A stretch of DNA of 52,916 bases from Myxococcota bacterium (lineage in GTDB: Bacteria; Myxococcota; B64-G9). Each line of letters starts with the position of its first letter. Positions within the stretch are counted from its first letter, which is position 1. The notes beneath the pieces are model-generated. The model was not told where the DNA came from. It did not search any database and saw only the letters and a program-made list of their open reading frames with translations. This document shows, piece by piece, positions 34,952 to 50,848 of this stretch. A program made the translations under genes and the position numbers. The DNA lies in contig JBFFBT010000003.1 of the NCBI GenBank assembly GCA_041560255.1, forward strand, positions 1-52,916. The letters run 5' to 3'.

Positions 34952-35142
34952 AAAAAAAGGAGGGTCACATATATATAAGCAGAGACAAACGCCTCTGGAA
35001 GCATCTTAACCAGATCATTTCGGATGAACAGCCCTCCCACTGTGGGCTCACAGCAGCCTCGTCCCAACGATCGGTCTCAGCTCGATTTTGCTACAACGCG
35101 TCTATATCTTGTCGGCTCGCTTTGGTTTACCACCCAAAGATG
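34952..35142 (-). ncRNA. Candidate orphan small RNA (unassigned family)
   Basis: Minus-strand TTGACA (35171-35176) with upstream T-tracts, a series of short hairpins, 3' CCCTCC-T7, and no credible ORF. Confidence 0.25.
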
Positions 35143-35385
35143 GCGTTGCGATAACACCCCTAATATATGCTGTCAAGAAAAAAACTTCAAAAATTAAAAA
35201 AAAAGCTCAACGATTCAAAAATACTGTAACCACCCAATCTAAATACAAAACCTCAAGAAGCGGCCTTCTATTATATGGTGACTCCACTCGCCGAAACGTT
35301 TCATTTTTTTGTCGAGAACGCTTCGAAAAAACTGACCCGGCAACCGAGTATTTTATGATAAGGCATGCGCAATCGAGTCCAGCTC

Positions 35386-36867
35386 TCATGGCGGCAAATC
35401 GGCAAGCGGCAGGTTGACCATAAAAGTGGTTCCTCCGGCCAGTTGGGAGGTAACCTCCACGGATCCGTTGTGGGCCTCAATGACCTTTTTAACCAAAGAA
35501 AGCCCCAGGCCCGAGCCGGTGATACCCCGAGTTTGTTTTCCTTTGACCCTAAAGAATCGATCGAAAATATGCGGGAGATCCTCGGGACTGATACCGATAC
35601 CGGTATCTTCGACTTTGATTCTGGCCAATGATTGAGCGACCGAGGCAGAAAGCCTGACCGTACCGCCGGGTTGGGTATATTTTATGGCATTGTCCAAAAT
35701 ATTGGTCAAGACTACCCGGAGCTGATCGATATCCACCGCGATCCACCAAGCCTGGCTATGGGGATCGTACTGAAGATCGATGTTTTTGCCTTCCGCCTTG
35801 GGTCGCACCAGATCGACTACCTGCCCGAGCAACCCATCACCCGATACCGGTTCCAGGTTGAGTACGATTGCCCCGGTATCCAGGCGGGACAGGCTGAGCA
35901 GATTTTCTATCATTTGCAGCTGATCATGCAGTCGTTCACTGATGCGTTCGAGCAAATGGCGTCTGCGGTCCAGATCCTGCTCCCCGCACTTTTGAATTGT
36001 GTAGACCATCTGAATGATCGACGCCAACGGCGCGCGTAAATCATGAGCCACCATCGCGACAAACTCGTTTTTATGCTGGTCGATTTGTTTGTGCGGGGTC
36101 AAATCCTCAAACACGGTCACCGATCCAAGAGCTTGACCATCGCCGACCCGCACCGGAGCGCAATGCGCCCTGAGATAATAACGGGATATGCTACCGGGCG
36201 GAAAGTCTCGCGTCACTTTTCTACCGGCCTGCATCACTTCCCGAACCATGTCCGAAGCGTTATGATCCAAGATAGAATCGGAAAGCGGTTTCCCGATGAC
36301 CGGATCGGTCTGCAGATCCAACATGCGGATGGCGGCCGGGTTATGCAGGACCACAATACCCTGTTTGTTGGTCACCAACACAGCCCCTTCCATGCACCCG
36401 AAGATGGTTCGAAGACGACTTTGCTCTTTGGCGATGGTTTCCAAGTTGAGATTTTTCTCTTCCCGCAGCTTGGCGGCTTCAGAGTGCAGCACGCGGGTTT
36501 TCACCGCCCGATCGACCACCAAGCGGATATAATCGGGGGTAAACGGCTTGCCGACAAAGTCGAATGCCCCTTGTTTCATGGCTTCCACGGCCTTGGCGAC
36601 CGTGGCAAATCCGGTCACCACGATCACGGTCACCGTGGGTCGGTTCTCCTTGATCCAGCTTAATACGGAAAAGCCGTCCATACCGGGCATCATCAAATCC
36701 AACAGAACAATATCAACCGGGATCTCCTGCATTCGGCCGATCCCGACCTTCCCGTTCTCCGCCTGGTGAATCTCATATTGTTCACCGCCCAGCGCCCGTT
36801 TGCATCCCTCCCGAATGACTTTTTCGTCATCGATCAACAAAATCCGGATCGGTTCATTGGAAACCAT
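35386..36867 (-). CDS. Soluble hybrid histidine kinase (REC-PAS-HisKA-HATPase)
   Basis: LLIDDE / LLDLMMPG / GKP receiver, PAS (NPAAIRML), VAHDLRAPL, NILDNAIKY, DTGIG, GSGLGL; no TM. Confidence 0.93.
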   Translation of the reverse strand: MVSNEPIRILLIDDEKVIREGCKRALGGEQYEIHQAENGKVGIGRMQEIPVDIVLLDLMMPGMDGFSVLSWIKENRPTVTVIVVTGFATVAKAVEAMKQGAFDFVGKPFTPDYIRLVVDRAVKTRVLHSEAAKLREEKNLNLETIAKEQSRLRTIFGCMEGAVLVTNKQGIVVLHNPAAIRMLDLQTDPVIGKPLSDSILDHNASDMVREVMQAGRKVTRDFPPGSISRYYLRAHCAPVRVGDGQALGSVTVFEDLTPHKQIDQHKNEFVAMVAHDLRAPLASIIQMVYTIQKCGEQDLDRRRHLLERISERLHDQLQMIENLLSLSRLDTGAIVLNLEPVSGDGLLGQVVDLVRPKAEGKNIDLQYDPHSQAWWIAVDIDQLRVVLTNILDNAIKYTQPGGTVRLSASVAQSLARIKVEDTGIGISPEDLPHIFDRFFRVKGKQTRGITGSGLGLSLVKKVIEAHNGSVEVTSQLAGGTTFMVNLPLADLPP

Positions 36868-36930
36868 GGCTCTTGTCCTCTTCGCGTGAGATCCCCGCCG
36901 CTCATCCGGCGGTATCCAGACATGCGCGAC

Positions 36931-37311
36931 CTAGATCCAGTCCTGAATGCGTTCGAGCAACACATCCGGCTGAACCGGTTTGGCGATATAGTCTTCAGCC
37001 TCGCTTTCCAGCATGTCACGATGGGTGTAGGTGCTCGAGGTAACCCTGGAAGCCACTGCGGTCAGAAGAATGATGGGAATGGCGGCGGTTTGGGGGTTTT
37101 CCTTCAAAGCTTTACAGGCTTCGTGGCCGTTGATCTCCGGCATCATGACATCCAAAATAATCAGATCCGGTTTAATCTCCCCGACCCTCTCGAGGCATTC
37201 CTTTCCGTCGTACGCCACCTCCACCTGGTAACCCGCTCCCTCGACCACGGTTTTGACAGAATCAACGAAATCCGGATCGTCATCCACCAAAAAGACTTTC
37301 TTTTTGCTCAT
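36931..37311 (-). CDS. Single-domain response regulator
   Basis: LVDDD, ILDVMMPE, LLTA, YIAKP; no output domain. Confidence 0.93.
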   Translation of the reverse strand: MSKKKVFLVDDDPDFVDSVKTVVEGAGYQVEVAYDGKECLERVGEIKPDLIILDVMMPEINGHEACKALKENPQTAAIPIILLTAVASRVTSSTYTHRDMLESEAEDYIAKPVQPDVLLERIQDWI

Positions 37312-37377
37312 GCCTGGTCCTCCTTATGGGGTTGCTTAAGTCGTTATACACCACAATTTGCTTGGGCACATGCGCTT

Positions 37378-38301
37378 TTATAGCTCCGGCCGGGGCACCA
37401 ATCCGGCGCTCTTGACAATCTCGGGCACTTTTTGCTCCCATTCGATGGCCATCAGATGCACTCCGCGAACTCCCTCGATCCCGCGCAGGCGCTCGATCGT
37501 CTCGATGCACATTTGGATGCCCACTTGAGGTTGATCCTTTTTGTCCGCGGCGGAAATTCGTTTGATCACCTCGTCGGGAATGTCCATACCGGCTACGTTT
37601 TTTTTCATGAATTTGGCCATGCCGGCTGATTTGAGCGGCGTCACACCCGCAAGCACTGCAACCTTTTCGTGCAAACCCCGATTGCGCACATCCTGCATGT
37701 ATTGCTCAAATTTCTTCAGATTGAATATACACTGGGTCTGTACGAAATCCGCTCCGGCCTGGACCTTGAGCGCCAATCTGGGCACCCGGATCTCGTAGGG
37801 ATCTGCAAACGGGTTTACCGCACATCCGATCAACACCGCAGGCTTGCCGGCCAGCTCCTTTCCGGAAGGAAACCTGCCCTCGTCACGCATCCTGCGAACC
37901 AAATCGACGAGTTGAATCGAATCGATATCGTACACGTTCTTGGCTTCGGGATCGTCGCCGAAAATCTGGTGATCACCACTTAGACACAATAGATTTCGAA
38001 TTCCCAGAGCGCTGGCCCCCAGCAAGTCGGACTGCAACGCAATCCGGTTTCGATCCCGCACCACCATCTGCATCAGAGGTTCTACTCCGGCTTGCTTGAG
38101 CAACAAGCAACCTGCCAGCGAGCTCATGCGCACCACCGACGTCTGGTTGTCGGTTACATTGCAGGCATCCACGTTGCCCTTGACATGCACCACCTTCTTT
38201 TGAAACTCCTCCGGATCGGCCCCGCGAGGAGGACCGCATTCGGCCGTGACCGCAAAATGACCCGCCGTTAAAATCTTTTCCAAGTTGCTGCCGGCTTTCA
38301 T
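37378..38301 (-). CDS. metF: Methylenetetrahydrofolate reductase MetF
   Basis: AECGPP, NVTDN, RDRNRIALQSD, LSGDH, KVQAGADFVQTQ, GVHLM. Confidence 0.95.
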   Translation of the reverse strand: MKAGSNLEKILTAGHFAVTAECGPPRGADPEEFQKKVVHVKGNVDACNVTDNQTSVVRMSSLAGCLLLKQAGVEPLMQMVVRDRNRIALQSDLLGASALGIRNLLCLSGDHQIFGDDPEAKNVYDIDSIQLVDLVRRMRDEGRFPSGKELAGKPAVLIGCAVNPFADPYEIRVPRLALKVQAGADFVQTQCIFNLKKFEQYMQDVRNRGLHEKVAVLAGVTPLKSAGMAKFMKKNVAGMDIPDEVIKRISAADKKDQPQVGIQMCIETIERLRGIEGVRGVHLMAIEWEQKVPEIVKSAGLVPRPEL

Positions 38302-38966
38302 TGGGTAAGATCCTCCCTTACGATGCGCCGCGGTCCGCCGTCACGACTTTGACGCCAGCGTTTCATCGGCCTGAGCTTTTCGTACATATCCAATCGATCG
38401 AGCGCATTGAGCCGATCGATAATGAGCTGCCAACCGCACGGCACGGATCGGTCGATCTCGCAATGGCCGCTGACCGAACCTCCGCAAGGTCCATGAAAGA
38501 TGCTTTTCGAGCAACGGGTGACGGGGCAGATGCCGCCGGTCAAATGCAGTACACACTCTCCGCAAGCTTGACAACGCTCACTCCACTCGCCCTGTCGTTC
38601 GGTGACTCCGATGAAATTGGTGTTGATACCGGGCAACATGGGTGTTTTCTTGAAAGTCTCGGCCAAAAACTGCACCCCGGCTCCACAGGCGATGGACAAT
38701 ACCGCCTGGTAGCCGTCGATATAGGGTCGCATCTGCTCCAGATACTCGGGATCGCATTGACGCTCCAAGGTTTCCGGTCGTATCTCGATGGGTTTCGACG
38801 CGGCTTCGCGGGCCAGTTTGAGCGTGGAGGCCAGGATTTCCACCTCTTTTTGACCTCCGGCCCGGCAAACAGTGACACACCCGTTGCATCCGGCCAAAAT
38901 GATCCGATCAAACGGATCCAACATCTCGATGATCTGCTCCAAGGGTTTTGCATTTCCGATGATCAT
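38298..38966 (-). CDS. metV: MTHFR-associated Zn/Fe-S subunit MetV
   Basis: GCNGCVTVC, ERQC, ACGAG, CQACGEC...GGICPVTRCSK...GPCGG...CE...CGW. ATGA overlaps with mvhD (38963-38966) and metF (38298-38301). Confidence 0.92.
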   Translation of the reverse strand: MIIGNAKPLEQIIEMLDPFDRIILAGCNGCVTVCRAGGQKEVEILASTLKLAREAASKPIEIRPETLERQCDPEYLEQMRPYIDGYQAVLSIACGAGVQFLAETFKKTPMLPGINTNFIGVTERQGEWSERCQACGECVLHLTGGICPVTRCSKSIFHGPCGGSVSGHCEIDRSVPCGWQLIIDRLNALDRLDMYEKLRPMKRWRQSRDGGPRRIVREDLTQ

Positions 38967-39439
38967 GCTTGTTCTCCCACTCTTTGCTCCGGATCGATCC
39001 GATCGATTTTTTCTTCCCAACCCTGCCGTACCTGATTGATGGGACTTGGTCCCATCTTCTCGATGTGCTCGACCATCTGGGTGGCATGAACGACAAACTT
39101 GGCTCCCTCACCCGCGCTGAGATTGACCATCCGCACCCTTCCGATCCCGATCCCGGCCGCACCCAGCAGCTTGTCGACCCGTTCGACCCGTTTGCGGGCT
39201 CTTAGATTTCCTACCTGAAAATGACAATCTCCCTCCAAACATCCCACCACCATCACTCCGTCCGCTCCGTTCTCGAACGCCCGCAGCACCATGATTTCTT
39301 CTACCCGGCCGGTGCAAGGCACCAGCACGATGCTGACACAATCGGGATACGAACGTCTTTCCGAACCTGCCAGGTCCGCGGCCGTATACGCTCAGTAACG
39401 ACAGCAAAACAAGACCACATTTGGTTGCCATCCGCCCAT
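38963..39439 (-). CDS. mvhD: MvhD/FlpD [2Fe-2S] subunit, selenoprotein (Sec at codon 16)
   Basis: AGGAGG RBS, ATG 39439, MGGWQPNVVLFCCRY-UGA-AYTAADLAG...VPCTGRV...GADGVMVVGCLEGDCH. The UGA (39392-39394) sits at the second Cys of the C-x-x-C-x-Y motif. Confidence 0.92.
39362..39391 (-). promoter_or_regulatory. Bacterial SECIS-like hairpin in mvhD
   Basis: CGGACCT-GGC-AGGTTCG stem-loop; its G-initiated loop begins 21 nt 3' of the UGA. Confidence 0.7.
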
Positions 39440-39451
39440 GTTTCCTCCTGA

Positions 39452-42400
39452 TTAACCACTACGGCAGCCAGGTTGCTCACCCAAAGCATCCACTTTGGCC
39501 AACAACTGCCTATCATTGTAATTGCCCAGGCTGATGGCCTTGCCGGGGCATTCCGCGGCGCAAATCCCACAACCCTGGCACATAGCGGGATTGATCTCGG
39601 CGATATGATCCGGGTTGACAACCGGAACATGAAAGGGACACGCCCGCACACAAGTCAAGCATACCGCGCAGCGTTCCGGATGGGACACGACCGATACAAC
39701 CCCAGACATCTTGAGCTTCTGCTTGGATAAAACCACACTCGCACGCGCAACCGCGGCCGAGGCTTGCGAGATGGTCTCCGATAGATTCTTGGGTCCATGC
39801 GCCAAACCCGCCACAAACACTCCTTCGGACGCAAAATCAACCGGCCGGAGCTTGGCATGCGCCTCGATGAAAAAACCACTTTCTGCCCGCGGCACCCGAA
39901 ACATCGCGCCGAGCTCTGCGTTATCCGTAGCCGTAATGCCCACCGACAACACCAGCAAGTCCGGTTCCATCACGACCCGCCTGCCGATGGACGGATCGGC
40001 CAGCGCGATCCGGGGGCGGGCACCCTGGGTGTCGACCTCGATGGGATTGTTTTCGGGATCATAGCGGATAAAATTGATCCCCAAACGCCTGGCTTGGAGA
40101 TATTCGAGCTCGCTCAAACCATACGATCTGACGTCCCGATAGACGACATCCACCCGGGTATCCGGATAACGAAGCTTGAATGCCAGCGCGTTTTTGATCG
40201 CCTGGTTGCAACATACCCGGGAACAATACGGCCTTTCCGGGTTACGCGATCCCACACACTGAATCATGACCACATGGGAATGCATAAATCCCAATCCGGT
40301 TTGATCATACAACATACGCTCGAACTCGGTCTGGGTACAGACCTTTTCATGCACACCAAGTCCATACAGGTCGGGTCGGTTTTCCAGTCCGCCGGTGGCA
40401 AGCAAGGTAGCGCCGTGCCGAATTTTCCGAGTAGCACCGGTCGGGGTGACGATTTCGGACTCGAAGTTACCTACAAAACCGGAGTGGGAGACAACCTCCG
40501 AGCCTAAAAACATCCTTACCGAGGATTGGGCTCGAAGCTCGGCCTCGAGTTTGTTGAGATGATCGACCACCGACAATCCGTCGATGGTCCTGCGCAGCAG
40601 CCGCGCCCGGCCACCCAATGTATTTTCACGTTCTACCAGATAGACCCGGAAACCTTGCTCGGCCGCCAGACGCGCCGCGCTCATACCCGCCAGACCTCCT
40701 CCAATAATGAGCAAGCTGCTATCGACCTCGAACTCACGTTCTTCCAGCGGTTCGGCCGAGCTCACATTGGCCACCGCCATACGCAACAAGCGTTTGGCTT
40801 TATCGGTAGCCCGCCGGTTGTCCGACCTGTGCACCCATGAGCATTGATCGCGTATATTGGCCATATCGAACAAATATTTATTCAACCCGGCCTGTGCCAA
40901 GGTTTGTTGAAACAAGGGTTCATGGGTTCTCGGAGAGCAAGAAGCCACTACGATACGATTGAGCTTGTGCTCCTCGATAATCCCCCGCATACTCTCCTGA
41001 GTGTCCTGGGAACAGGTGTAGAGCAAATGGTTTGCATAGACCACCCCGGGTAAAGACCGGGCGTATTCGGCCACTTCGGCCACATCCACGATGGCCGAAA
41101 TATTGATGCCGCAATGGCATACAAACACCCCGACCCGCAACTCCTCGTCCTGCAAACCGGCCCGCACGGGTGGATAGGATTCTTCGGTCACCAGACTGTG
41201 GCGGGAGGCCGACAATACACCGGCGGCCGCGCCCGCAGCCCCGCTGGCTTCGGACACCGTCTCCGGAATGTCTTTGGGAGCGTTGAACACACCGCAGACA
41301 AAAACTCCCGGCCGATTCGTGGCCAGCGGGGAAAACGACCGGGTCCGGGCAAAGCCGAATCGATCCAACTCAATCCCTAATTTTTCTGCGGTATCCCGGG
41401 TCGTCGGACTGCACTGCAGTCCCACCGACAAAACCACCATCTCAAACTCTTCCTCTCTCCTTTGACCGGATTCATCCACGTAACGCAGCAACAGGTTGTC
41501 GGTGACCGGATCCTCCATGATGCGGCTCACCATGGCGCGCAAGTAGCGCACCTTATGAACCGTCTTGGCTCGTTCGACGTAATCATCAAACCCCTTTCCA
41601 AACGCCCGAATATCGATATAGAAGATGGTGGGCTCGATCCGGCCGTCATGTTCTTTTGCAATGACGGCCTCCTTGGTGGCGTACATGCAACACACCGAAG
41701 AGCAATACTCGCGCCCCAAGGACGCATCTCTCGAACCAACGCACTGTATGAACGCAACTTTCCGCGGCGCCCGTTTATCGCTGGGACGCACCACATGTCC
41801 GTCGGTCGGACCCGAGGCAGAAAGCAATCGCTCGAACTCCAGACTGGACAGCACATTTTTATGCTGCCCGTAGCCCAATTCGGGCCTTTTTTCTGCTGGA
41901 AACACTTCGAATCCAGGCGCCAAGATCACCGATCCAACCTCCACCTCCAAAACCTGTTCAGTCTGAAGATGATCGATGGCATCGGCCTTACAAGCGGGCA
42001 CACACCGGTAACATTCGCTACATACTCCGCAGGCTAGACATCTGGCGGCCTCCTCCATCGCTTGATCCCGGGTAAAAACCGCTTCGACCTCCTCGAAGTT
42101 GGTTGTGCGGGTCATCGGATCCAACATGGCGGCCCGTTGCCTTGGCTTGGGCTCGGGGTGGTCGATTTTTACATCAGCCTGCTTGGGTTGCTGCGATCTT
42201 TCGCTGTGTAAATCCCGCCCATGCAAATAACGCTCGATGGAGATCGCCGCTTCTTTTCCGGCCGCGATGGCTTCGATGGCGGTGGCCGGCCCGCTGGCCA
42301 CATCTCCGCCCGCAAACACGCCGGGCAACAAGGTTGCAAAGGTGACAGGATCCGATACCCGACCCGAGTCTGCGTTCGGGAGCCAATCCAAATCGGCCCA

Positions 42401-43891
42401 TTGGCCCACGGCGGCTATCAGGGTATCCACTTCGATAACCTCTTCCAAACCCTCGACCGGCACCGGTCTTCGGCGGCCGGACTCGTCCGGCTCCCCGAGC
42501 TGCATCGTCATGATCTCCAATTTGCGGATTTTTCCATTTTCGCCGATACACCGAAGCGGCGCCCGCAGCAAGCTTAACTGTACGCCTTCTTCTTCGGCGG
42601 CTTCGATCTCGTGTCGGTCTGCGGGCATTTCCTCCCGCGAGCGCCGGTATAGAAGCATAACCCGGCTTGCTCCCAAGCGAAGCGCTGTGCGGGCCGCATC
42701 AATCGCAGTGTTGCCTCCGCCTACCACGACGACTTTGTCACCCACCTCCACGTTTTCGCCCCGAGCGACTGCCGAGAGAAAATCGATCCCCTGGACAACC
42801 CCGTCACTGTCCTCGCCATCGATACGCATACGAGAAGCCCGCCAGGCCCCGCTGGCCATATAGATGGCCGAAAAACCCTCTTTTTTCAGCGAATCAATCG
42901 TAAAATCAACCCCCAACCTCTTGCCCATCTCGACCCTGACCCCGAGATCCAAAATCGCTTTGACTTCGATATCCAATATATTTTTTGGCAGCCGGTAAGC
43001 GGGTATCCCATAGCGCAACATACCCCCAAGCTCGGGAAGAGCTTCGAACACGGTAACCCCGAAACCCTTTCGGCGAAGATAATAGGCCGCCGTCAAGCCA
43101 CTCGGACCCGCGCCCACTACGGCCACCTGCTCGGATCGATCGACCGGCGGTCCGGGCAGATGGGGCAATCCATGTTGCAGCTCGTAATCAGTCACATATC
43201 GTTTGAGCTGGCGTATGGCTAAGGGCTCGTCGACTTGAGATCGCGAGCAGGCTGTCTCGCAAGGAGCCGGACAGACCCGTCCGCAAACCGACGGGAACGG
43301 ATTCTCCTCCCGGATGAGGGCCAAGGCTTCTTCAAAACGACCCTCGGCAATGAGAGCCACGTAGCCCTGCACACTGATATGACTCGGGCAAGCCTGCTTG
43401 CAAGGAGCGCGCCCGGATTTATCGATGGCGAATCCACCCGGAATGGCTTGGGGATAGCGGCGATAAATCGCTTTCCGCATCCCCATACCCAGGTTGTGCT
43501 CCGACGGCACCTCGATGGGACAAGCATTCACGCATTCACCGCATCCGGTGCAACGATCCAATCTGATATAACGCGGGCTTTGGATCAAACGGGCCCTGAA
43601 GCTTCCCAGAGTACCTCCGAGATCTTCCAAGCGGGTATCGGTCAAAATCTGGATGTTTTTGTGCCGGCCCACTTCCACCAGCTTCGGCGATACGATACAC
43701 ATGGAGCAATCGTTGGTGGGAAAAGTTTTATCCAACTGAGCCATTTTTCCACCGATGGCGGACAAGGTTTCGACCAAGTAAACTTTGAAACCTGAATTGG
43801 CCAGATCCAGAGCCGCCTGCATTCCGGCGATCCCGCCGCCTGCCACCAATACAGCTCCGGTGGGAGCTTTTGCGCATTCAGCGTTTTCCAT
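39452..43891 (-). CDS. hdrA: Large HdrA (HdrL-type): two HdrA modules plus an inserted GltD-like NAD(P)H/FAD module and ferredoxin domains
   Basis: GGKMAQLDKTFPTNDCSMC; APCKQACP...CGRVCPAPCE, GAGPSGL, GGGNTA, YRRS; FIQCVGSR...YCSSVCC; VFVCHCG, SCSPRTHE; second IQCVGSR...YCSRVCC; EAHAKLRPV; C-terminal 2x[4Fe-4S]. Confidence 0.93.
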   Translation of the reverse strand: MENAECAKAPTGAVLVAGGGIAGMQAALDLANSGFKVYLVETLSAIGGKMAQLDKTFPTNDCSMCIVSPKLVEVGRHKNIQILTDTRLEDLGGTLGSFRARLIQSPRYIRLDRCTGCGECVNACPIEVPSEHNLGMGMRKAIYRRYPQAIPGGFAIDKSGRAPCKQACPSHISVQGYVALIAEGRFEEALALIREENPFPSVCGRVCPAPCETACSRSQVDEPLAIRQLKRYVTDYELQHGLPHLPGPPVDRSEQVAVVGAGPSGLTAAYYLRRKGFGVTVFEALPELGGMLRYGIPAYRLPKNILDIEVKAILDLGVRVEMGKRLGVDFTIDSLKKEGFSAIYMASGAWRASRMRIDGEDSDGVVQGIDFLSAVARGENVEVGDKVVVVGGGNTAIDAARTALRLGASRVMLLYRRSREEMPADRHEIEAAEEEGVQLSLLRAPLRCIGENGKIRKLEIMTMQLGEPDESGRRRPVPVEGLEEVIEVDTLIAAVGQWADLDWLPNADSGRVSDPVTFATLLPGVFAGGDVASGPATAIEAIAAGKEAAISIERYLHGRDLHSERSQQPKQADVKIDHPEPKPRQRAAMLDPMTRTTNFEEVEAVFTRDQAMEEAARCLACGVCSECYRCVPACKADAIDHLQTEQVLEVEVGSVILAPGFEVFPAEKRPELGYGQHKNVLSSLEFERLLSASGPTDGHVVRPSDKRAPRKVAFIQCVGSRDASLGREYCSSVCCMYATKEAVIAKEHDGRIEPTIFYIDIRAFGKGFDDYVERAKTVHKVRYLRAMVSRIMEDPVTDNLLLRYVDESGQRREEEFEMVVLSVGLQCSPTTRDTAEKLGIELDRFGFARTRSFSPLATNRPGVFVCGVFNAPKDIPETVSEASGAAGAAAGVLSASRHSLVTEESYPPVRAGLQDEELRVGVFVCHCGINISAIVDVAEVAEYARSLPGVVYANHLLYTCSQDTQESMRGIIEEHKLNRIVVASCSPRTHEPLFQQTLAQAGLNKYLFDMANIRDQCSWVHRSDNRRATDKAKRLLRMAVANVSSAEPLEEREFEVDSSLLIIGGGLAGMSAARLAAEQGFRVYLVERENTLGGRARLLRRTIDGLSVVDHLNKLEAELRAQSSVRMFLGSEVVSHSGFVGNFESEIVTPTGATRKIRHGATLLATGGLENRPDLYGLGVHEKVCTQTEFERMLYDQTGLGFMHSHVVMIQCVGSRNPERPYCSRVCCNQAIKNALAFKLRYPDTRVDVVYRDVRSYGLSELEYLQARRLGINFIRYDPENNPIEVDTQGARPRIALADPSIGRRVVMEPDLLVLSVGITATDNAELGAMFRVPRAESGFFIEAHAKLRPVDFASEGVFVAGLAHGPKNLSETISQASAAVARASVVLSKQKLKMSGVVSVVSHPERCAVCLTCVRACPFHVPVVNPDHIAEINPAMCQGCGICAAECPGKAISLGNYNDRQLLAKVDALGEQPGCRSG

Positions 43892-43897
43892 GCTCTT

Positions 43898-44743
43898 TTA
43901 TCCTTCAGGGCGGGATTGTATCCCGCCAAGCAACGGTTTTGGGTCAATGAGGTGTTGCCGCCAGCGGCCCGGCTCGTGATCCTCGCTCATCGCATACGCC
44001 ACAAGCTCGGTGATGAAAAACACCGGCAGCCCGTCTGATCGATCGGACTGGCGCGCCTCCAGGTTGGCTTGACACATGGGACAATCCGTCACCAACGCCC
44101 GAGCGCCCGCCCTGCGGGCCGCCCCGACAATGTCTCCAACCAGCCTTGCGGCGATATCCGGGCGTGACATGCTCAGGCTGGACGAGCAACACTCGGTTTT
44201 ATGGCTCCAGCGAACCGCTCGAGCACCCAAAGCCGTCACAATCCTATCCAGACCATCTGGATTTTCACAATCCGGCGCACCGGTCACCGCCGGGGGCCTG
44301 AGGGAAAGACATCCGTAATAACAAGCCAGATCGAGTGCATGGAGAGGTCTTCGCACCAAGGCCTTCACCCGGGCCAACATATCCGGGCGAGCCACAAATC
44401 GCGTCAGATGAATGATGGCGAAATCACCTGCTTCAGCCTCTTCTGCTCGTATGTCGCTCGTATCCTTAGATTGCAGCTTGTCAGCAACCCGCAATCTTTG
44501 AAAACACGCCGAGCAGGGCACCAACAAATCCAACCCCAATTTCACGGCTTTGGAAAGATTTCTCGAAGACAATGCAATCGAAAGTCGGTGATCGGTCATA
44601 TGGCCCGAGGAAGCGCCGCAACAGTTCCAATCCGTAAGCTCCACCAGCTCAAAACCCAACAAGCCGGCGACTTCCCGTATGGATCGATCATATTCGGCCG
44701 ATGTACCGGCAAGCGAGCATCCGGGATAATATGACATTTTCAT
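43898..44743 (-). CDS. hdrB: Heterodisulfide reductase subunit B (CCG domains)
   Basis: YYPGC, DWNCCGA, PCSAC, YYGC, TECCS, DCPMCQANL. Confidence 0.93.
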   Translation of the reverse strand: MKMSYYPGCSLAGTSAEYDRSIREVAGLLGFELVELTDWNCCGASSGHMTDHRLSIALSSRNLSKAVKLGLDLLVPCSACFQRLRVADKLQSKDTSDIRAEEAEAGDFAIIHLTRFVARPDMLARVKALVRRPLHALDLACYYGCLSLRPPAVTGAPDCENPDGLDRIVTALGARAVRWSHKTECCSSSLSMSRPDIAARLVGDIVGAARRAGARALVTDCPMCQANLEARQSDRSDGLPVFFITELVAYAMSEDHEPGRWRQHLIDPKPLLGGIQSRPEG

Positions 44744-45303
44744 GTCGAAGGTCCTTTTTCGTTTTGATCGAAGATGCGCCGAAAGCGTCTCAGGCCTTTC
44801 ATCCGGCGGGGCAACAAGTGCAGTTTACCTCGCTTGAACATCCGCCAACCCAAACGCAAATCAGAGAAAAAATCCCGGGTTCGGGCTTTGTAGGCCGCCA
44901 ACATGCCGACCTCGTACGTCCGACCCCATCGGCGAACCGAACGCAAAAAAGAACGATGAAAAGCAACCACGCGTTTTTCGGCCGGTTGGACGCCGCCCTC
45001 CAAAGCCATCTGCCGCAACACGTCCATCAAGCCGGCAATGTCGATTCCGTTTGGGCAACGGGTCGTACAAGTCTCACAGGACGCGCACAACCATATGGTG
45101 CGGCAGGCCAACAAATCCTTTTCGACTCCGTACGCGCTCAGGCGCACCACCTGCATCGGCAGAAGATCGAAAAAATCCCCTACCGGACAACCGGCCGAGC
45201 AACGCCCACACTGGTAACAGGCCGTCGGCTCGATGTGCATCTCTTTCAGCCGGTGCTGCAAGAAAGTCTCGCCCGATCGGGCCTGCAGACTGATCGAATT
45301 CAT
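44740..45303 (-). CDS. hdrC: Heterodisulfide reductase subunit C
   Basis: CYQCGRCSAGCP and WLCASCETCTTRCP; ATGA overlaps on both sides. Confidence 0.93.
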   Translation of the reverse strand: MNSISLQARSGETFLQHRLKEMHIEPTACYQCGRCSAGCPVGDFFDLLPMQVVRLSAYGVEKDLLACRTIWLCASCETCTTRCPNGIDIAGLMDVLRQMALEGGVQPAEKRVVAFHRSFLRSVRRWGRTYEVGMLAAYKARTRDFFSDLRLGWRMFKRGKLHLLPRRMKGLRRFRRIFDQNEKGPST

Positions 45304-46907
45304 GTCTCAGACTCCGGCATTTCCCGGCTTAGCACCGGAAAGCGCAAGGTAAAAGTCGTACCCTGACCCGGCTCGGATTTGACCCTGACCGAGCCTCGGT
45401 GCTCGCGAACAATTGCGTAGGATACCGACAAGCCCAGTCCGGTTCCGCCCTGGTCGGTTTTGGTGGTAAAAAAAGGATCGAATATCTGTCCTTGGATCTC
45501 TTTGGGTATACCCGGTCCTGTATCTTCAAAAGAGATTTCGACAATCCCTCCGCTGGAACGATGCCGGGCCCGAATGGTCAAACCGCCTCGACCTTCCATG
45601 GCCTGGGCGGCATTGACGATGAGGTTCATGAAAACCTGGTTCAACCGGATGGGGTTGCCTCGGATTCTCGAGAGGTGTTTGTCGATCTCGAGATCGAATT
45701 GAATGTTTTGAAACGAAGGTTGTTTTTCCAACAAGCTCAACGTTTTTCGAATTTGATCCCCCACATCCACACCGGTTTGTTCGTAACTGGTCTGATGGGA
45801 AAACTCGAGCAAATCGGTAACAATCTGCTTGCAACGCTCGGCCTCCTGCACGATGACGTTGAGATCCCCCGCCACGGGATGTTCGGAGTCCAATTGCTCC
45901 AGGGCAAGATTGGCATACAACATGATCCCCGACATGGGGTTGTTGATTTCATGGGCCACGCCCGCGGCCAATCTACCCAAACCGGCCATTTTTTCGGATT
46001 GCAACAACATCTGGTGTATCTGCTGCAGGTCTTCTTCGGCTTTACGGATGGCCCTAAGATCGGTAAAAATACCGTAAGATGCGATCTCTTTTTGACCATC
46101 GTATATGATTCCGCCCGAAAGGCTCATGGGAATTTGCTTACCGTCTTTGGTAATGGCGATGAGCTCGTGACGCAGCAGCTTTCCCTGGCCTCCGTAGTTT
46201 TTGCTTCGCATCCGCTTGATGATCTTGAAGGCCTCGCCCTCCGGATACAATTTGGTCACATGCAAGGATCGAAACGCCTCTTCACGCGTATATCCTAAAA
46301 TGTTTTGGGCGCCGGTGTTGAACAAAATGATGTTGCCCTTCATATCGGAAGCGATGATGCCGTCGACCGAAGAATCGATGAGATTGTGAAAAAAAGTATC
46401 CCGGTATTTGAGCTCGATCTCGAGTTGGCGCCGGGCGGTGATATCCCGCATGAACCACACGGAGTAACCACCCACCTCCCCGCCGCTGGTCATTTCCAAT
46501 ATCCGTGCCATGCCGGTAATCGACTTCACCTCGAGCTCGTGGGCAGTGGGCTGAAACAAATCGGCGATCCGATCCAACACCCGGTGTCCGTACAGCTGCT
46601 CGCCGGCGTCTTTTCTTTCGGCCGGCATGGTGATACAACGATGCAATTGGGTACAATCACCGGCCGGAGACAGAGTTTCGCCAAACAACCCGACCAGGGT
46701 TTTGCCCAAAAGTCCCGGGGACTCGGTTTCCAAAATCTTGCACGCGCAAAGGTTGGCATATTCGATGACCTGATCGGAGTTGACCAACAACACCCCGAGT
46801 GGAGATTGCTCCATGATGCGAAGCACCAACTCGGCATTGCCGCAATCTATCCCGGGGGATCCCCCGGCATCCGGCGGAAAGCTCATGTCAGACATCGCTT
46901 TGACCAC
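45300..46907 (-). CDS. Soluble PAS-PAS histidine kinase
   Basis: Two PAS domains, EKMAGLGRLAAGVAHEINNP, QVFMNLIVNA, FDPFFTTK, GTGLGL; no TM; stop overlaps the hdrC start. Confidence 0.93.
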   Translation of the reverse strand: MVKAMSDMSFPPDAGGSPGIDCGNAELVLRIMEQSPLGVLLVNSDQVIEYANLCACKILETESPGLLGKTLVGLFGETLSPAGDCTQLHRCITMPAERKDAGEQLYGHRVLDRIADLFQPTAHELEVKSITGMARILEMTSGGEVGGYSVWFMRDITARRQLEIELKYRDTFFHNLIDSSVDGIIASDMKGNIILFNTGAQNILGYTREEAFRSLHVTKLYPEGEAFKIIKRMRSKNYGGQGKLLRHELIAITKDGKQIPMSLSGGIIYDGQKEIASYGIFTDLRAIRKAEEDLQQIHQMLLQSEKMAGLGRLAAGVAHEINNPMSGIMLYANLALEQLDSEHPVAGDLNVIVQEAERCKQIVTDLLEFSHQTSYEQTGVDVGDQIRKTLSLLEKQPSFQNIQFDLEIDKHLSRIRGNPIRLNQVFMNLIVNAAQAMEGRGGLTIRARHRSSGGIVEISFEDTGPGIPKEIQGQIFDPFFTTKTDQGGTGLGLSVSYAIVREHRGSVRVKSEPGQGTTFTLRFPVLSREMPESET

Positions 46908-46980
46908 CTCGTATCACCTCAATCCTACAACCACGGCAGTGTGCGCCGGCCCATCCTAGACCAACGACCCAAACCGGCGA

Positions 46981-47853
46981 CTAACGTCCCAACTTGGACA
47001 AAAACGCCGTCAGGTTGTCGCCCCAACCCAGGGCAACCAAACTGGCTCCTTTGCATCGATCCTCGAGATCGCGGACGAACTCGGCGGCTATCTCCAAGCC
47101 GGCCTGTTTTTTTAAAGGTGACTGCACCATTTTTTTTAAAAACTCGTTCGGGATGCTGGGTAGACCGGGTAGATCATTGAAATATCGAATCATAGCCACC
47201 GATTTAAGCAAGATGACCGAGGCAAACAGATGGATGCCGGCATCCAAGGCCTGTTTGGCGAACAAATCCACAATGTTGACATCATAGGTTGGGCCAAGGA
47301 CCAGAAAATGCACCAGATCCCGAGGATATCTTTTGATTTCCTCGGCGATTCGGCGATTTTTGTTCACGTCGTCCGATACTCCCAAGCTGACACCCACCGT
47401 ATACGCGGTCTTTCCCGCCAGTGCCTCCCCAGCCAAATCACGACCATCGTTGAGAGCCTGGACACACTGGAGCATGATATCCATGCTCAAATCCCTGCCG
47501 CTTTGTGCCATGGGTTGATCGCCCGAGGCAGCGTCCTCGCCCATCTCAAAAAGCACAGTTTTCACCCCAAGTTGCCATCCGGCCAGCAAATCGCCCTGAA
47601 AAGATATGCGGTTGCGATCGCGCCCGTTGAGAACCATGATGGGCTCGATGTTGCGCTCGACCAAGGCCCGGCAGGGAGCAAGCGGGGTCATTCGCATGAT
47701 CGCGCTACTGGAGTCGGTGACTGCGACCGCTTCCACCCTGCCCCGCACCCGATCGGCCGTATCGAAAAAATCATTCAAGTCAACCCCCTTGGGGGGATCA
47801 ATCTCGGCGATTAGGGTAAACTCGTCCTTCTGCAAAAAAGAAGACACGCCCAT
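46981..47853 (-). CDS. Divergent MetF (MTHFR-fold) paralog with degenerate active-site motifs
   Basis: AEIDPPKG, AVTD, RDRNRISFQGD and GRDLAG are retained. LSGDH becomes EMGED and KVQAGADFVQTQ becomes RYPRDLVHFLVLG. Confidence 0.85.
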   Translation of the reverse strand: MGVSSFLQKDEFTLIAEIDPPKGVDLNDFFDTADRVRGRVEAVAVTDSSSAIMRMTPLAPCRALVERNIEPIMVLNGRDRNRISFQGDLLAGWQLGVKTVLFEMGEDAASGDQPMAQSGRDLSMDIMLQCVQALNDGRDLAGEALAGKTAYTVGVSLGVSDDVNKNRRIAEEIKRYPRDLVHFLVLGPTYDVNIVDLFAKQALDAGIHLFASVILLKSVAMIRYFNDLPGLPSIPNEFLKKMVQSPLKKQAGLEIAAEFVRDLEDRCKGASLVALGWGDNLTAFLSKLGR

Positions 47854-47979
47854 GGTCTAACCCACCTTCCTGGCTTAGAGAATCCCCTCTGGTGTCGGGG
47901 AAACCGGAGACGGTTTTCTTGAGACTTCCTCGCTCCATGAACACGCTGACATTTGAAGTATATACAGTGCCGTAGTGGC

Positions 47980-48008
47980 ATCATAGCAACCCGTATAGGG
48001 ATCGTCAA
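47980..48008 (-). promoter_or_regulatory. sigma70 promoter of the metF-like/HK/hdr/met operon
   Basis: TTGACG-N17-TATGAT with extended -10 TG. Confidence 0.7.
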
Positions 48009-48010
48009 GA

Positions 48011-48026
48011 GTTACATAAGGTTACT
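48011..48026. promoter_or_regulatory. 10-bp-period direct repeat abutting the -35 box
   Basis: GTTACA-taag-GTTACT. Confidence 0.4.
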
Positions 48027-48107
48027 GTTGCTCCTCACTAGGTCGGGCTCAACTACCCACCGGATACATAAAGGCTTTGCGACATTTTCGGGTTTGCGGA
48101 TGCAGGG

Positions 48108-48135
48108 ACTTTTTCATTTGGCAAAATGAAAAAGT
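48108..48135. promoter_or_regulatory. Perfect inverted repeat in the divergent promoter region
   Basis: ACTTTTTCATTT-ggca-AAATGAAAAAGT (12-bp arms). Confidence 0.55.
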
Positions 48136-48253
48136 TAAGCTTATATGTATTTCCGGGGATGGACTATGCAGTCAAATATAGATAGAATGACTCCCTGCGC
48201 CGTACGATCGGCGGAATTTTGAATGCCTTTTTAGGAGAGTGAGGGAAAGTACA

Positions 48254-50848
48254 ATGATGAAAAAGATTGCTATTCATGTAGTTACAACCGGATGGATCAT
48301 GTGGTTTATTATGCTGGGTTGGGCCTGCTCGCAGGACGGCGTATCGAAGATATGCTTGGGTGACAATGACTGTGAAGCAAATGAAAAATGTATCGACAGC
48401 AAATGTGTACCCGAAACCGAAGCCTGCGTCGATCAGGATAAAGATGGTTACGGAGAGCACTGCGATAAAGGCTCCGACTGTAACGACAACGACGCGACCA
48501 TCTTTTTCGGGGCTCCCGAGCTGTGCGATGGAAAAGACAATGACTGTAACGGCATCCAAGACAGCGGGGTAATGTGTGAATCCGTCTGCTGCGGTTTCTC
48601 GGAAATATGTTTTTTGCAGGAATGCATGGTGGACTTGGGAGGGTGTGAAAAGGACGAAGATTGTCAAGAGGACAGCTATTGTCATGAAGGACAATGTATA
48701 CCCTACGGCAAGGGACCCAGGGATGATACCAATCCGGATTGCACCCGTCTTTCGATCGCCGGCTTGTTTCAGCCGGCCCTCCAATGCGAGTGGACCTTTC
48801 CACCCAGCGGAGACTCTTATCCGGCTCACATCCAGGTGCTGGGCACTCCCATGGTGGCGGATTTCGACTTTGACGACGATTCCCAGTCCAACCAACCCTC
48901 CATTGTGTTTCTCACCTATGATTCGATTGAAGGGGACTTGGGAGTGGGTACCGCTCTGGATGGGGTGATCCGCATCATCGACGGGAAAACTTGTCAAACT
49001 CAGTTTTCGCTTGGTCCTTACCTCAATGCATCCAATCCGGTGGCCATCGGCGACCTGGACCAGGACGGCCGTCCCGAGATCGTGGCCCATCGAAACACCG
49101 CCGGGGCGATCGCTTATCGCTACAACCCCGAAAAAATTGCGTGGGAAGTCCTCTGGGAGGGCCACCGGGCCACGGGCGAACCGGTGGTGTTTGAAGAAGG
49201 CGCAACGTCCTGGGGTGGACCGTCGCTCATCGATCTCAACGATGACGGGCGGCCCGAAGTACTGTCCGGCGGACTGGTGTATGACGCTGCCGGTTTGCTG
49301 CTCGACGAGCATCTGGGTTTGGACGCGTTGTTCAACGTAGGTTTTCCAGTCGCCGCCGACCTTGACGGCGACGGCAAGATAGAGCTCGCTGGCGGTCTTT
49401 ACACCTGGGAGTTCGACCCAGAAACGTTGCGGTGGGAAGTACAAACCGCCTACAGCGGCTATTCGGGCTACACCGCGGCGGCGGACTTCGGAACATACCT
49501 TCCCGATCCCACGCTGGACAACCGGGCAATCACCGACGGCACCGCCGAGATCGCCGTGGTAAGCTATGGACAAATCAGGATCGATGAGCTGTCCGGCCGC
49601 ACCATCTTCGGACCCATCGATCTTCCCAGCAGTGAAGGAGGCGGACCGCCGACCATCGGGGATTTCGACGGGGACGGACGAGCCGAAGTCGCGGCCTCCG
49701 GCTCGGACTCTATGACCATCTTCGATCCGGATTGCATCCCCGGAGCCGACCCATCGGTATGTCCAACCGCTAGAGTCGATGGAATTTTATGGACCCAGCC
49801 TTCCCAGGATCACTCGTCCAACATCACCGGCTCGTCATTGTTCGACTTCGAGGGCGACAAAGTGGTCGAAGCCATCTATGCCGATGAGTGCTTCGTGCGG
49901 GTCTACCGGGGCACGGACGGCAAGGTCTTGTACTCGCAATGGAGAAGCTCGTGTACCTGGATCGAAAACCCGATCGTTGCGGACGTGGATGGGGATTTCA
50001 GCTCGGAGCTGGTAGTGCCCTCCAACCAAAGCTGCGCCATCAAACCGGAAAACATGGGATCGCTCGCCTACGAAACCAGCCCGAACGGCAAACCCATGGA
50101 CCCCTTGTTTGTGGGACTGCCTTGCAAAGAAAACTCCGACTGCGTAAGTCTTACTTGTGTCGAAGACCTATGCCGGTGCGAAACCCATGCCCAGTGCGGT
50201 GGCGGAGGTTTTGTATGCGCCGAGCCCCCCGCGGGCACTGCGGGCAGCGGAAAGACCTGCCGAGCCGAATGGCAGGGACGTATCAACGGTGTTCGGGTCT
50301 ACCGCGATACGTTGGATCGCTGGGTGGGATCCCGCTCCATCTGGAACCAACACGCGTATTCCATCACCAATGTCACCGAAGCCGGGATTGTACCCAAGAC
50401 CAGCGAAGCGGATCAAAACTGGCTGGTAGCCGGATTGAACAATTTCAGGCAAAACATACAAGGGGATCTAAGCCCTCACCACTCGCCCGACATGACCGCG
50501 GGTGGCGGCTCGTTCAACGGAGCAAGCTGTGACGAAAACGGCACTCTGACACTACAGGTTAGGGCCTGCAACCGGGGCACCAACCCGGTGGCCGCCGGCA
50601 TCCAGTTGGGATTTTATGCCGGCGATCCGGATCTCGCAGAGACAAAAAAAATCTGCCAAGCCGAAACCACCCAAACGCTGGCTGCAGGAGCCTGTGAAAT
50701 CATCGAGTGCACCTGGCCGGATGCTCCCGAGGACGACCCCACGGACATCACCGTCGTGGCGGACGACGGCAACCAGCGCACAGAGTGCATCGAGACCAAC
50801 AACCGGGCCGTCATCCATGACGTAACCTGCAGTGGAGTCGTTCGATGA
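48254..50848 (+). CDS. Surface lipoprotein: Cys-rich + MopE-like repeat + FG-GAP/VCBS beta-propeller + CARDB-like C-terminus
   Basis: Lipobox GWAC; DQDKDGYG..DCNDND..IFFGAPELCDGKDNDCNG; repeated GDLDQDGRPEIV / DLNDDGRPEV / DLDGDGKIEL / DFDGDGRAEV; C-terminal CNRG...ECIETNN. Confidence 0.88.
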   Translation: MMKKIAIHVVTTGWIMWFIMLGWACSQDGVSKICLGDNDCEANEKCIDSKCVPETEACVDQDKDGYGEHCDKGSDCNDNDATIFFGAPELCDGKDNDCNGIQDSGVMCESVCCGFSEICFLQECMVDLGGCEKDEDCQEDSYCHEGQCIPYGKGPRDDTNPDCTRLSIAGLFQPALQCEWTFPPSGDSYPAHIQVLGTPMVADFDFDDDSQSNQPSIVFLTYDSIEGDLGVGTALDGVIRIIDGKTCQTQFSLGPYLNASNPVAIGDLDQDGRPEIVAHRNTAGAIAYRYNPEKIAWEVLWEGHRATGEPVVFEEGATSWGGPSLIDLNDDGRPEVLSGGLVYDAAGLLLDEHLGLDALFNVGFPVAADLDGDGKIELAGGLYTWEFDPETLRWEVQTAYSGYSGYTAAADFGTYLPDPTLDNRAITDGTAEIAVVSYGQIRIDELSGRTIFGPIDLPSSEGGGPPTIGDFDGDGRAEVAASGSDSMTIFDPDCIPGADPSVCPTARVDGILWTQPSQDHSSNITGSSLFDFEGDKVVEAIYADECFVRVYRGTDGKVLYSQWRSSCTWIENPIVADVDGDFSSELVVPSNQSCAIKPENMGSLAYETSPNGKPMDPLFVGLPCKENSDCVSLTCVEDLCRCETHAQCGGGGFVCAEPPAGTAGSGKTCRAEWQGRINGVRVYRDTLDRWVGSRSIWNQHAYSITNVTEAGIVPKTSEADQNWLVAGLNNFRQNIQGDLSPHHSPDMTAGGGSFNGASCDENGTLTLQVRACNRGTNPVAAGIQLGFYAGDPDLAETKKICQAETTQTLAAGACEIIECTWPDAPEDDPTDITVVADDGNQRTECIETNNRAVIHDVTCSGVVR

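Follow-up and report, generated by a model that had tools for sequence, protein, structure and literature searches.

A divergent MetF paralogue kept with Hdr–MvhD–MetVF gene clusters and a two-component phosphorelay: probable loss of methylene-tetrahydrofolate reduction and a possible regulatory role

Divergent copies of MetF are common in Desulfobacterota-type genomes, where they lie in Hdr–MvhD–MetV–canonical MetF clusters (one four-gene cassette apart) and are nearly always accompanied by a PAS kinase, a hybrid kinase and a CheY-like regulator. The copy that we analysed, here called MetF-like, is encoded on contig JBFFBT010000003.1 of a Myxococcota bacterium (GenBank assembly GCA_041560255.1), within a stretch of 52,916 nucleotides hereafter called the window. 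Its product belongs to the MTHFR family and fold. Judged by its active-site columns, the protein is probably no longer able to reduce methylene-tetrahydrofolate by the known mechanism, and sequence comparison indicates that it is kept by selection in many anaerobic bacteria. We give an even chance to the reading that MetF-like is a pseudo-MetF with a regulatory rather than a catalytic role, which docks on MetV/MetF and is linked to a phosphorelay of the Hdr–MvhD–MetFV reductase.

MetF-like is the first of ten same-strand genes (35386–47853, minus strand; Table 1) that are separated by short gaps or overlap, in the order MetF-like, HK1, HdrC, HdrB, HdrA (with a GltD-like insert), MvhD, MetV, MetF, CheY-like RR and HK2. 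Its uninterrupted reading frame and leading position agree with the first-pass annotation of this DNA, which had described an intact, full-length gene standing first in an operon. A Shine–Dalgarno sequence rated as good, GGAAGGTGG, precedes it, and a putative sigma-70-like promoter lies about 125 nt upstream of its start. No sigma-54 promoter (consensus, ≤2 mismatches) was found in 47854–48238, the window as a whole holding 30 such matches against 27 expected, and a search of 35000–48400 for known RNAs or riboswitches returned 0 Rfam matches at E ≤1. The genome is a marine MAG, 95.9% complete in 502 contigs, with genes for acetyl-CoA synthase and for three more members of the MTHFR family. A search of read data sets for the stretch returned one match, its probable source metagenome, and none from RNA.

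Table 1. Coordinates of MetF-like, its putative promoter and the nine genes that follow it
Feature	Position	Strand	Description and support
Sigma-70-like promoter	47980..48008	-	TTGACG-17-TATGAT, TG extension, 10/12 consensus matches (consensus match only)
MetF-like	46981..47853	-	Divergent MTHFR-fold paralogue, 290 aa; ATG start, zero internal stops
HK1	45300..46907	-	Soluble PAS-PAS-HisKA-HATPase histidine kinase, 535 aa; Pfam, NCBIfam AtoS-like, PDB kinase cores
HdrC-like	44740..45303	-	2x[4Fe-4S] protein; Pfam Fer4 families; start overlaps HK1 stop by 4 nt
HdrB-like	43898..44743	-	Two CCG domains; PF02754, 69.5 bits, 2 stretches
HdrA	39452..43891	-	With inserted GltD/NfnB-like NAD(P)H-flavin module ('HdrL' type), 1479 aa; Pfam, NCBIfam
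MvhD	38963..39328	-	PF02662, 105 bits
MetV	38298..39020	-	Small Fe-S/zinc subunit of MetFV-type MTHFR; PF12225, 118.5 bits
Canonical MetF	37378..38301	-	MetFV type; PF02219; overlaps metV by 4 nt; Thermus MTHFR at E 2.5e-10
RR	36931..37311	-	CheY-like, receiver-only, 126 aa; PF00072, 94.7 bits
HK2	35386..36867	-	REC-PAS-HisKA-HATPase hybrid kinase, 493 aa; Pfam

HK1 starts 73 nt downstream of MetF-like; across nine HK1 orthologues the second PAS domain and the kinase core are nearly invariant, and the N-terminal 170 aa are variable, this domain being absent in one genome (G031). The name HdrL for the HdrA/GltD fusion comes from PMC2702500. The true start of metV probably lies later than the listed TTG, which overlaps mvhD, and the translated RR, inspected by eye, has the acidic pocket, the phospho-acceptor Asp, the Thr and the Lys. 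MetF-like does not adjoin metV, which lies about 8 kb downstream and pairs with the canonical copy; it lacks two marks of a MetFV-type MetF, namely metV adjacency and the full set of canonical invariant columns.

Assignment to the MTHFR family is supported at the level of sequence, profile and model. MetF-like matches Pfam PF02219 at 39.5 bits (cut-off 24), with residues 6–273 covering profile positions 5–271 of 287, compared with 151.5 bits for the canonical MetF of the same cluster. The two proteins are 28% identical over 298 columns (BLASTP, E 5e-35), and an hhalign comparison of 44 MetF-like family members with 21 canonical MetFs gave a probability of 100% over 287 columns. The AF2 model built from the 44-sequence alignment is a complete β8α8 barrel (pLDDT 90.2, pTM 0.89; pLDDT 93.0 for canonical MetF), and all of its listed top PDB matches in Foldseek are MTHFRs (TM 0.70–0.74, 12–18% identity), from Thermus, Chaetomium, Haemophilus, human, yeast, E. 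coli and Neisseria. The Atlas model of a 59%-identical orthologue reaches TM 0.94 to MTHFR models. A low-confidence loop after strand 5 (105–120) is not specific to the paralogue, since the canonical model dips at the same place. Direct sequence searches against solved PDB structures gave a chance match only with phmmer (E 0.48) and none at E ≤1 with the 44-sequence profile, and no fused MetF-like form of 509–2000 aa appeared at E ≤1e-20, which is weak evidence against such forms. The representatives include MTHFR fusions to REC, HTH, MetV, FolD and CdhD; those that were checked proved to be of the canonical type.

Alignment with the canonical copy confirmed the motif comparison of the first-pass annotation: the N-terminal Glu motif (AEIDPP opposite AECGPP), VTD and RDRNR are kept, canonical LSGDH stands opposite EMGED, and canonical K..AGADFVQTQ stands opposite RYPRDLVHFLVLG. 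The profile–profile alignment (44 versus 21 sequences) runs without indels from RDRNR through the conserved Gly to GDxP, so that the column equivalent to E. coli Asp120 is truly E106 in MetF-like. This column holds H, Q or E across the family, with a conserved Asp107 one column on; the same position, D, is not strictly conserved in the mycobacterial enzyme Mfr either (PMC11094777). The carboxamide column (position C, Gln183) is occupied by Gly187 in MetF-like, and by Gly in 100% of its subfamily and of the sister subclade. The catalytic Glu (position A, E. coli Glu28) is kept as Glu17, as are T46-D47 and R78-R82 (RDRNR); together with GDQP and LKS these residues are invariant across the 44 orthologues of the window's own subfamily.

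We extended the comparison to the 54 columns with 90% conservation or more among 35 canonical MetFV-type MetFs. Of these, 28 are retained in the window's subfamily (among them the Glu, PP.G, RDRNR, the T and D of VTD, the GD-motif Gly, the GD of GDxP and the Ser of LKS) and 26 are changed, 11 of the latter being 100% conserved in the canonical proteins. Changed in all three divergent groups, in canonical numbering, are N48, D110, K179, Q188, Q190, G219, H282 and M284, where D110 corresponds to E. coli Asp120, Q190 to Gln183 and K179 to the Lys172 region named in the first-pass annotation. When the canonical copy is aligned to Thermus MTHFR with HMMER, H282 falls in the His270 column (E. coli His273), changed in MetF-like, and Q78, changed in the window's subfamily, in the His77 column. 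In the Thermus enzyme His270 hydrogen-bonds the catalytic Glu18, His77 adjoins flavin N5, and the Asp of the GD motif also hydrogen-bonds the ribityl chain (PMC3156243). E. coli mutants at the aligned positions are severely impaired: Glu28Gln has <0.01% activity, Asp120Asn retains 0.3% of kcat, and Gln183Ala or Gln183Glu raises the Km for methylene-tetrahydrofolate more than 250-fold (PMC11094777). The altered columns therefore appear to leave MetF-like one of the four named positions, the Glu, whose proton-relay His partner is lost. In the sister subclade the Glu column itself holds Gln or Arg (7/7 genomes), and the same cluster is retained. The earlier claim that folate/FAD-site motifs had been lost thus holds for the loss; the label 'FAD-site', borrowed from E. 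coli, does not carry over, as the MetF of MetFV-type enzymes carries FMN, not FAD (PMC8515935).

These changes have accumulated in a gene that shows no sign of decay. A word-indexed search returned 451 relatives, of which the best 119 (own protein excluded) are 52–69% identical and 274–297 aa long, and 49 columns are invariant among 44 orthologues. Annotated carriers of the family include Desulforhopalus sp. and Desulfocastanea catecholica. Nei–Gojobori dN/dS was 0.27 for the closest pair (dS 0.20), 0.16–0.20 for deeper pairs with computable dS and 0.01–0.04 among three Desulfocapsaceae MAGs (dS saturated), all within the range of neighbouring genes. Such values on orthologues indicate purifying selection, not neutral drift, and distant genomes share the synteny; with the intact frame, the conserved family and the full, confident barrel model, they uphold the earlier view of a retained, non-decaying gene. 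That MetF-like is a neutral, decaying metF duplicate has in its favour the weak Pfam score and the lost motifs, and nothing else. Family, selection, synteny and model data exclude this explanation, to which we assign next to no probability. Lost catalytic residues combined with purifying selection are the marks of a pseudoenzyme, and on its sequence MetF-like would be classed as one.

In a tree of 88 MTHFR-type sequences, the window protein falls in a clade, A (FastTree 0.997, SH-aLRT 96.1), that also includes the Glu-less sister subclade from seven other genomes. A sample of 401 genomes of the phylum contained strong MetF-like orthologues in eight genomes (392–497 bits; next match 224 bits), and a second sample of 401 genomes, drawn around a Desulfocapsaceae MAG, gave one match of 526 bits and seven of the sister type at 337–368 bits. 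The ten-gene order of the window recurs in three Desulfocapsaceae MAGs and in four genomes of the window's own family, and two further contigs end inside HK1. In the sister subclade the order is MetF-like–HdrC–HdrB–HdrA–MvhD–MetV–MetF–HK1–HK2 with RR nearby (4/4 loci on long contigs, three more loci being cut by contig ends), and overall the same gene set occurs in at least four gene orders. One genome (G025) carries MetF-like–HK1–RR–HK2 alone among unrelated genes, MetF-like and HK1 overlapping by 4 nt, and has canonical MetF and MetV on another contig. The earlier observation that the gene stands directly before the PAS kinase therefore proved correct for the window's lineage (11 of 11 loci of the subfamily) and not for the sister subclade or the larger group described below, where the paralogue mostly precedes HdrC or HdrA directly and the kinases are encoded at other places in the cluster. 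Its position next to the kinase is specific to the window's lineage.

In a larger collection of divergent MetFs, group B, the canonical motifs are replaced by V-P-E-M, G-E-D and T.P.FD; this group forms a grade, not a clade, in the IQ-TREE run. All of its 30 best places, in 30 genomes, have an Hdr gene, an HK1/HK2 homologue or an RR within 1.5 kb, and HK1 stands directly beside the paralogue in seven. We read 20 of these places to about 9 kb on either side. HdrA is present in 20/20 and the full HdrA–MvhD–MetV–MetF series in 17/20, the other three being cut by contig ends; RR directly follows MetF in 16/20. HK1/HK2 homologues (≥34% identity) occur in 17/20, and of the other three loci one ends just past RR and two have kinase matches of 25–28% only. 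Each cluster encodes two MTHFR barrels: L[ST]GDH and QTQ are present in 20/20 canonical copies, and the divergent copies lack L[ST]GDH in 20/20 and the Gln in 19/20.

Clusters devoid of the paralogue served as controls. MetV is present in 321 of the 401 genomes of the sample, and we took 20 MetV loci from 19 genomes that have no match to the group-B profile at E ≤1e-85. These loci read MvhD–MetV–MetF or MetV–MetF, with HdrA matches in 18/20, and their canonical MetFs are 43–66% identical to that of the window (56–66% in 19/20), the same range as in paralogue-bearing clusters. A second MTHFR gene was found in 0/20. A kinase adjoins the cluster in one (L110); a receiver-sized ORF follows MetF in three, and weak kinase matches lie 4–8 kb off in two. 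Most paralogue-bearing clusters group together in a single clade (0.958) of a MetV+MetF tree, and five control loci nest within it as sisters of group-B loci. In four of these five genomes the best genome-wide HK1 match reaches 172–227 bits, compared with 295–394 bits in five sister genomes, and no HK1 orthologue was found anywhere in the four. This joint absence in four of five sister pairs indicates that paralogue and kinases tend to be gained or lost together, the control and carrier genomes being related, so that their counts do not amount to independent trials. HK1 (388 bits), HK2 and RR are all retained in the fifth (G418), in which no paralogue was found; its HK1 lies on a 2.6-kb contig that runs on into HdrA at one end and stops 184 nt upstream of HK1 at the other. 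We regard this genome as either a counter-example or an assembly gap. With this one ambiguous exception, the presence or absence of the paralogue tracks the cluster kinases, in line with a regulatory role.

To identify the likely partners of MetF-like, we compared pairwise distances across the 17 loci at which the eight proteins are all present (136 pairs), by a Mantel-type approach taken from work on Met subunits (PMC6085437); partial r corrects for the average of the remaining genes. MetF-like co-varied most with MetV (raw r 0.88, partial r 0.72) and MetF (0.83 and 0.48), then with MvhD (0.73 and 0.31), HdrA (0.70 and 0.26) and RR (0.33 and 0.20). The corresponding values were 0.62 and -0.13 for HK1, and 0.65 and 0.00 for HK2. 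As reference pairs, MetV with MetF gave 0.84 and 0.39, and HK1 with HK2 gave 0.92 and 0.82, so that the method is able to see kinase partners. MetV was the top partner of MetF-like in 189 of 200 locus resamples, and in group B alone (nine loci) the MetF-like/MetV correlation was 0.85 raw and 0.63 partial. Mirror-tree correlations are weak predictors of contact and may be caused by shared rate or shared history; read in this way, they are soft evidence that the physical neighbour of MetF-like may be MetV/MetF rather than the kinases.

The phosphorelay appears to be directed at the enzyme. No DNA-binding domain is encoded in the cluster (Pfam), and the receiver-only RR directly follows MetF in nearly all clusters. 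Two representatives are canonical MetFs with a C-terminal receiver, which shares 40% and 30% identity with the window's RR; the sequence clusters that they stand for have 5 and 7 members, each on its own contig, and one carries the label Clostridia. By the Rosetta-stone argument these fusions suggest that RR probably acts on MetF itself, and the lack of an encoded DNA-binding output points the same way. The paralogue is linked to the relay by co-occurrence only, as its co-variation does not point to the kinases, and this co-occurrence comes from kin clusters, most paralogue-bearing ones belonging to the one clade.

In the mechanism that we favour, the pseudo-MetF would dock on MetV and/or MetF, its remodelled barrel would bind a folate- or flavin-type ligand, and it would link HK1, HK2 and RR to the condition of the enzyme or the C1 pool, RR then acting directly on canonical MetF. 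MetF-like may stand at the input of the relay, sensing a ligand or redox state for HK1 to read, or may belong to its output. A rival reading, which starts from the ligand sensor that the first-pass annotation named first, places the protein outside the enzyme complex, as a free-standing cytoplasmic ligand sensor that would bind HK1 directly as its co-sensor. The invariable position upstream of HK1 in the window's subfamily speaks for it, as do the cassette of G025, which lacks hdr and metVF and has overlapping stop and start codons, the absence of HK1 together with the paralogue, stricter than for any other component, and the seven group-B loci in which the two adjoin. Set against these points are the sister subclade and most of group B, with the paralogue beside HdrC/HdrA and the kinases at the far end of the cluster, the partial correlations at or below zero with kinases that co-vary strongly with each other, and the variable N-terminal domain of HK1, absent from G031. 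On balance we consider a co-sensor of this kind decidedly unlikely.

Another possibility is that MetF-like is still a redox enzyme, a flavin-carrying second site wired through MetV into the Hdr complex and acting on a substrate other than methylene-tetrahydrofolate, for example the second acceptor of Hdr-type MTHFR, which for the Moorella-type complex is not yet known according to PMC8515935 and PMC6085437. The invariant Glu17 of the window's own subfamily leaves room for catalysis on another substrate, and T46-D47, RDRNR, GDQP and LKS are equally invariant; the Fe-S subunit MetV is the partner with which MetF-like co-varies most, and in the sister subclade and group B the gene is nearly always followed directly by HdrA or HdrC. 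However, the His partner of the Glu, the residue near flavin N5 and the ribityl-bonding Asp, as assigned in PMC3156243, are all changed, and the sister subclade dispenses with the Glu altogether. Many close Hdr–MvhD–MetVF clusters also do without the paralogue, as does the purified Moorella enzyme described in PMC8515935, and the coming and going of the paralogue with the kinases would be left unexplained. We hold a retained redox function to be somewhat unlikely. The regulatory pseudo-MetF can also be taken further, to a control device built into the reductase of many sulfate-reducer-type anaerobes: a dead MetF on MetV would read folate or redox state and, through the PAS-kinase/hybrid-kinase/CheY relay, throw a post-translational switch in which RR binds MetF; this scheme, or the alternative that the paralogue is the missing second-substrate site, is speculative and in our view unlikely.

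Eukaryotic MTHFR is regulated by a SAM-binding regulatory domain and by phosphorylation, and PDB entries titled for this regulation (8UY1/8UY2, 8QA4-6) are among the structural matches of the MetF-like model. The coupling of a barrel to a regulatory module and to phosphorylation resembles the proposed arrangement by analogy only: the eukaryotic module is a fused, unrelated domain served by eukaryotic kinases, whereas here a separate paralogous barrel accompanies a bacterial two-component relay. Accessory proteins that feed or modulate histidine kinases, such as PII with NtrB and NreA with NreB, offer a second candidate likeness, each being a small, soluble protein that binds a ligand and is encoded next to a cytoplasmic kinase; to our knowledge neither PII nor NreA is an enzyme paralogue of the pathway that it controls, unlike MetF-like.

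The closest enzymatic counterpart is the six-subunit MetFV–HdrABC–MvhD complex of Moorella thermoacetica (PMC8515935, PMC6085437), with which MetF-like shares the Pfam family, the fold and the hdrCBA–mvhD–metVF cluster. MetF-like has in common with MetFV-type MetF the N-terminal half of the barrel (Glu, VTD, RDRNR, GDxP, LKS); unlike it, MetF-like is a second copy that does not lie beside metV and lacks L[ST]GD, QTQ, the invariant Lys and the GVH His. As described in these two sources, the Moorella cluster has neither a second copy nor kinases, whereas MetF-like co-occurs with two kinases and a CheY-like protein. With the FAD-dependent MTHFRs of E. coli and Thermus (1ZP4, 3APY and others), its best structural matches, MetF-like has the Glu column in common but is only 12–18% identical, and the Asp120, Gln183 and His273/His270 columns are changed. 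The flavin-independent Mfr of mycobacteria is an MTHFR-type barrel that likewise departs from the flavin enzyme, but it keeps the Glu and the carboxamide Gln177 and is active with NADH (PMC11094777), whereas MetF-like has Gly in the Gln column; the PDB searches returned no Mfr entry as a sequence match.

Elements of the arrangement have been noted before: a two-component pair flanks metF in a Chloroflexi hdr–mvhD–metVF cluster (PMC5736913), kinase and regulator genes are listed beside hdr loci (PMC2702500), and HdrABC adjoins metF in syntrophic sulfate reducers (PMC10553843). We found no published description of this divergent MetF copy in the full-text literature, a search that does not cover subscription journals, and the classification of bacterial MTHFRs as set out in PMC8515935 does not include it. 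What is new here is that such copies are common and that they come with Hdr–MetVF clusters and signalling genes of their own.

The Hdr-linked methylene-tetrahydrofolate reductase is the least understood step of the Wood–Ljungdahl pathway; according to PMC8515935 and PMC6085437, its coupling partner is not yet known. A disabled second barrel, a private phosphorelay without DNA-binding output and MetF–REC fusions together suggest direct, signal-dependent control of this central enzyme of energy metabolism. The automatic label 'methylenetetrahydrofolate reductase' is probably wrong for the divergent paralogues, and such mislabelling matters for metabolic reconstructions of marine sediment bacteria.

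Comparison of gene order across loci revealed that the same ten genes, from the divergent MetF paralogue to the hybrid kinase HK2, occur in an identical order in Desulfocapsaceae metagenome-assembled genomes (MAGs; L001-L003) and in the window's own family (L030-L033). At the phylum level the two groups behave like distinct samples: MetFV-type MetF matches were recovered in 16 of 401 versus 128 of 401 genomes (E-value thresholds of 1e-40 and 1e-60, respectively). The Desulfocapsaceae copies of the divergent MetF nest among the remaining copies in the tree of MTHFR-type sequences. This pattern looks like lateral transfer of the entire ten-gene cluster.

Features of the ten-gene cluster and its flanks in the window
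Feature	Coordinates	Strand	Details
Cytochrome bd oxidase subunits I and II	32420-34797	+	525 and 329 bits
Receiver-only response regulator (RR)	36931-37311	-	downstream of metF
HdrA	39452-43891	-	1479 aa
FG-GAP, MopE-like metal-binding and CARDB domain protein	48239-50848	+	869 aa

Individual components vary in domain content. The window HdrA contains a GltD/NfnB-like NAD(P)H-flavin insert of ~450 aa, and its Desulfocapsaceae relatives (~1215 aa) have most of this insert absent; HdrA with a GltD-like module is designated the 'HdrL' type in PMC2702500. The variable part of the PAS histidine kinase HK1 is generally its N-terminal 170 aa, and in one member of the window's family (L031) the HK1 orthologue is just 389 aa long, with the first PAS-like domain missing and the upstream MetF-like gene intact. 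At the edges of the cluster, which is of a strictly anaerobic type, the cytochrome bd oxidase genes lie immediately downstream, and the gene for the FG-GAP/MopE-like/CARDB protein runs divergently from the promoter region.

Two further loci (L092 and L096) each contain two tandem HdrA-MvhD-MetV-MetF sets, with only one divergent MetF per locus within the fetched stretches. At L096, the paralogue, HK1 and HK2 separate one set from the other. In the MetV and MetF tree, the second MetVF set falls with clusters that carry no paralogue.

The window's own genome encodes two additional MTHFR genes on other contigs (C159 and C186): one is of the E. coli type (278.7 bits to PF02219), and the other is a second MetFV-type MetF with 61% identity to the window MetF and a MetV-like match downstream, not upstream. 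The MAGs of L001-L003 hold an unusually large MTHFR-fold repertoire, with 7-12 separate PF02219 matches each.

Domain fusions occur among the representative MTHFR-family proteins. P0229 (384 aa; three cluster members) combines a canonical-looking MTHFR domain with an XRE-type helix-turn-helix domain, and may be a folate-sensing transcription factor. In P0230 (455 aa) and P0132 (423 aa), canonical MetF carries a C-terminal CheY-like receiver domain with 40% and 30% identity, respectively, to the window RR; their clusters comprise five and seven members on separate contigs, and one such fusion is labelled 'MTHFR/CheY-like' in its source. These fusions suggest that the target of the RR is the MetF enzyme itself.
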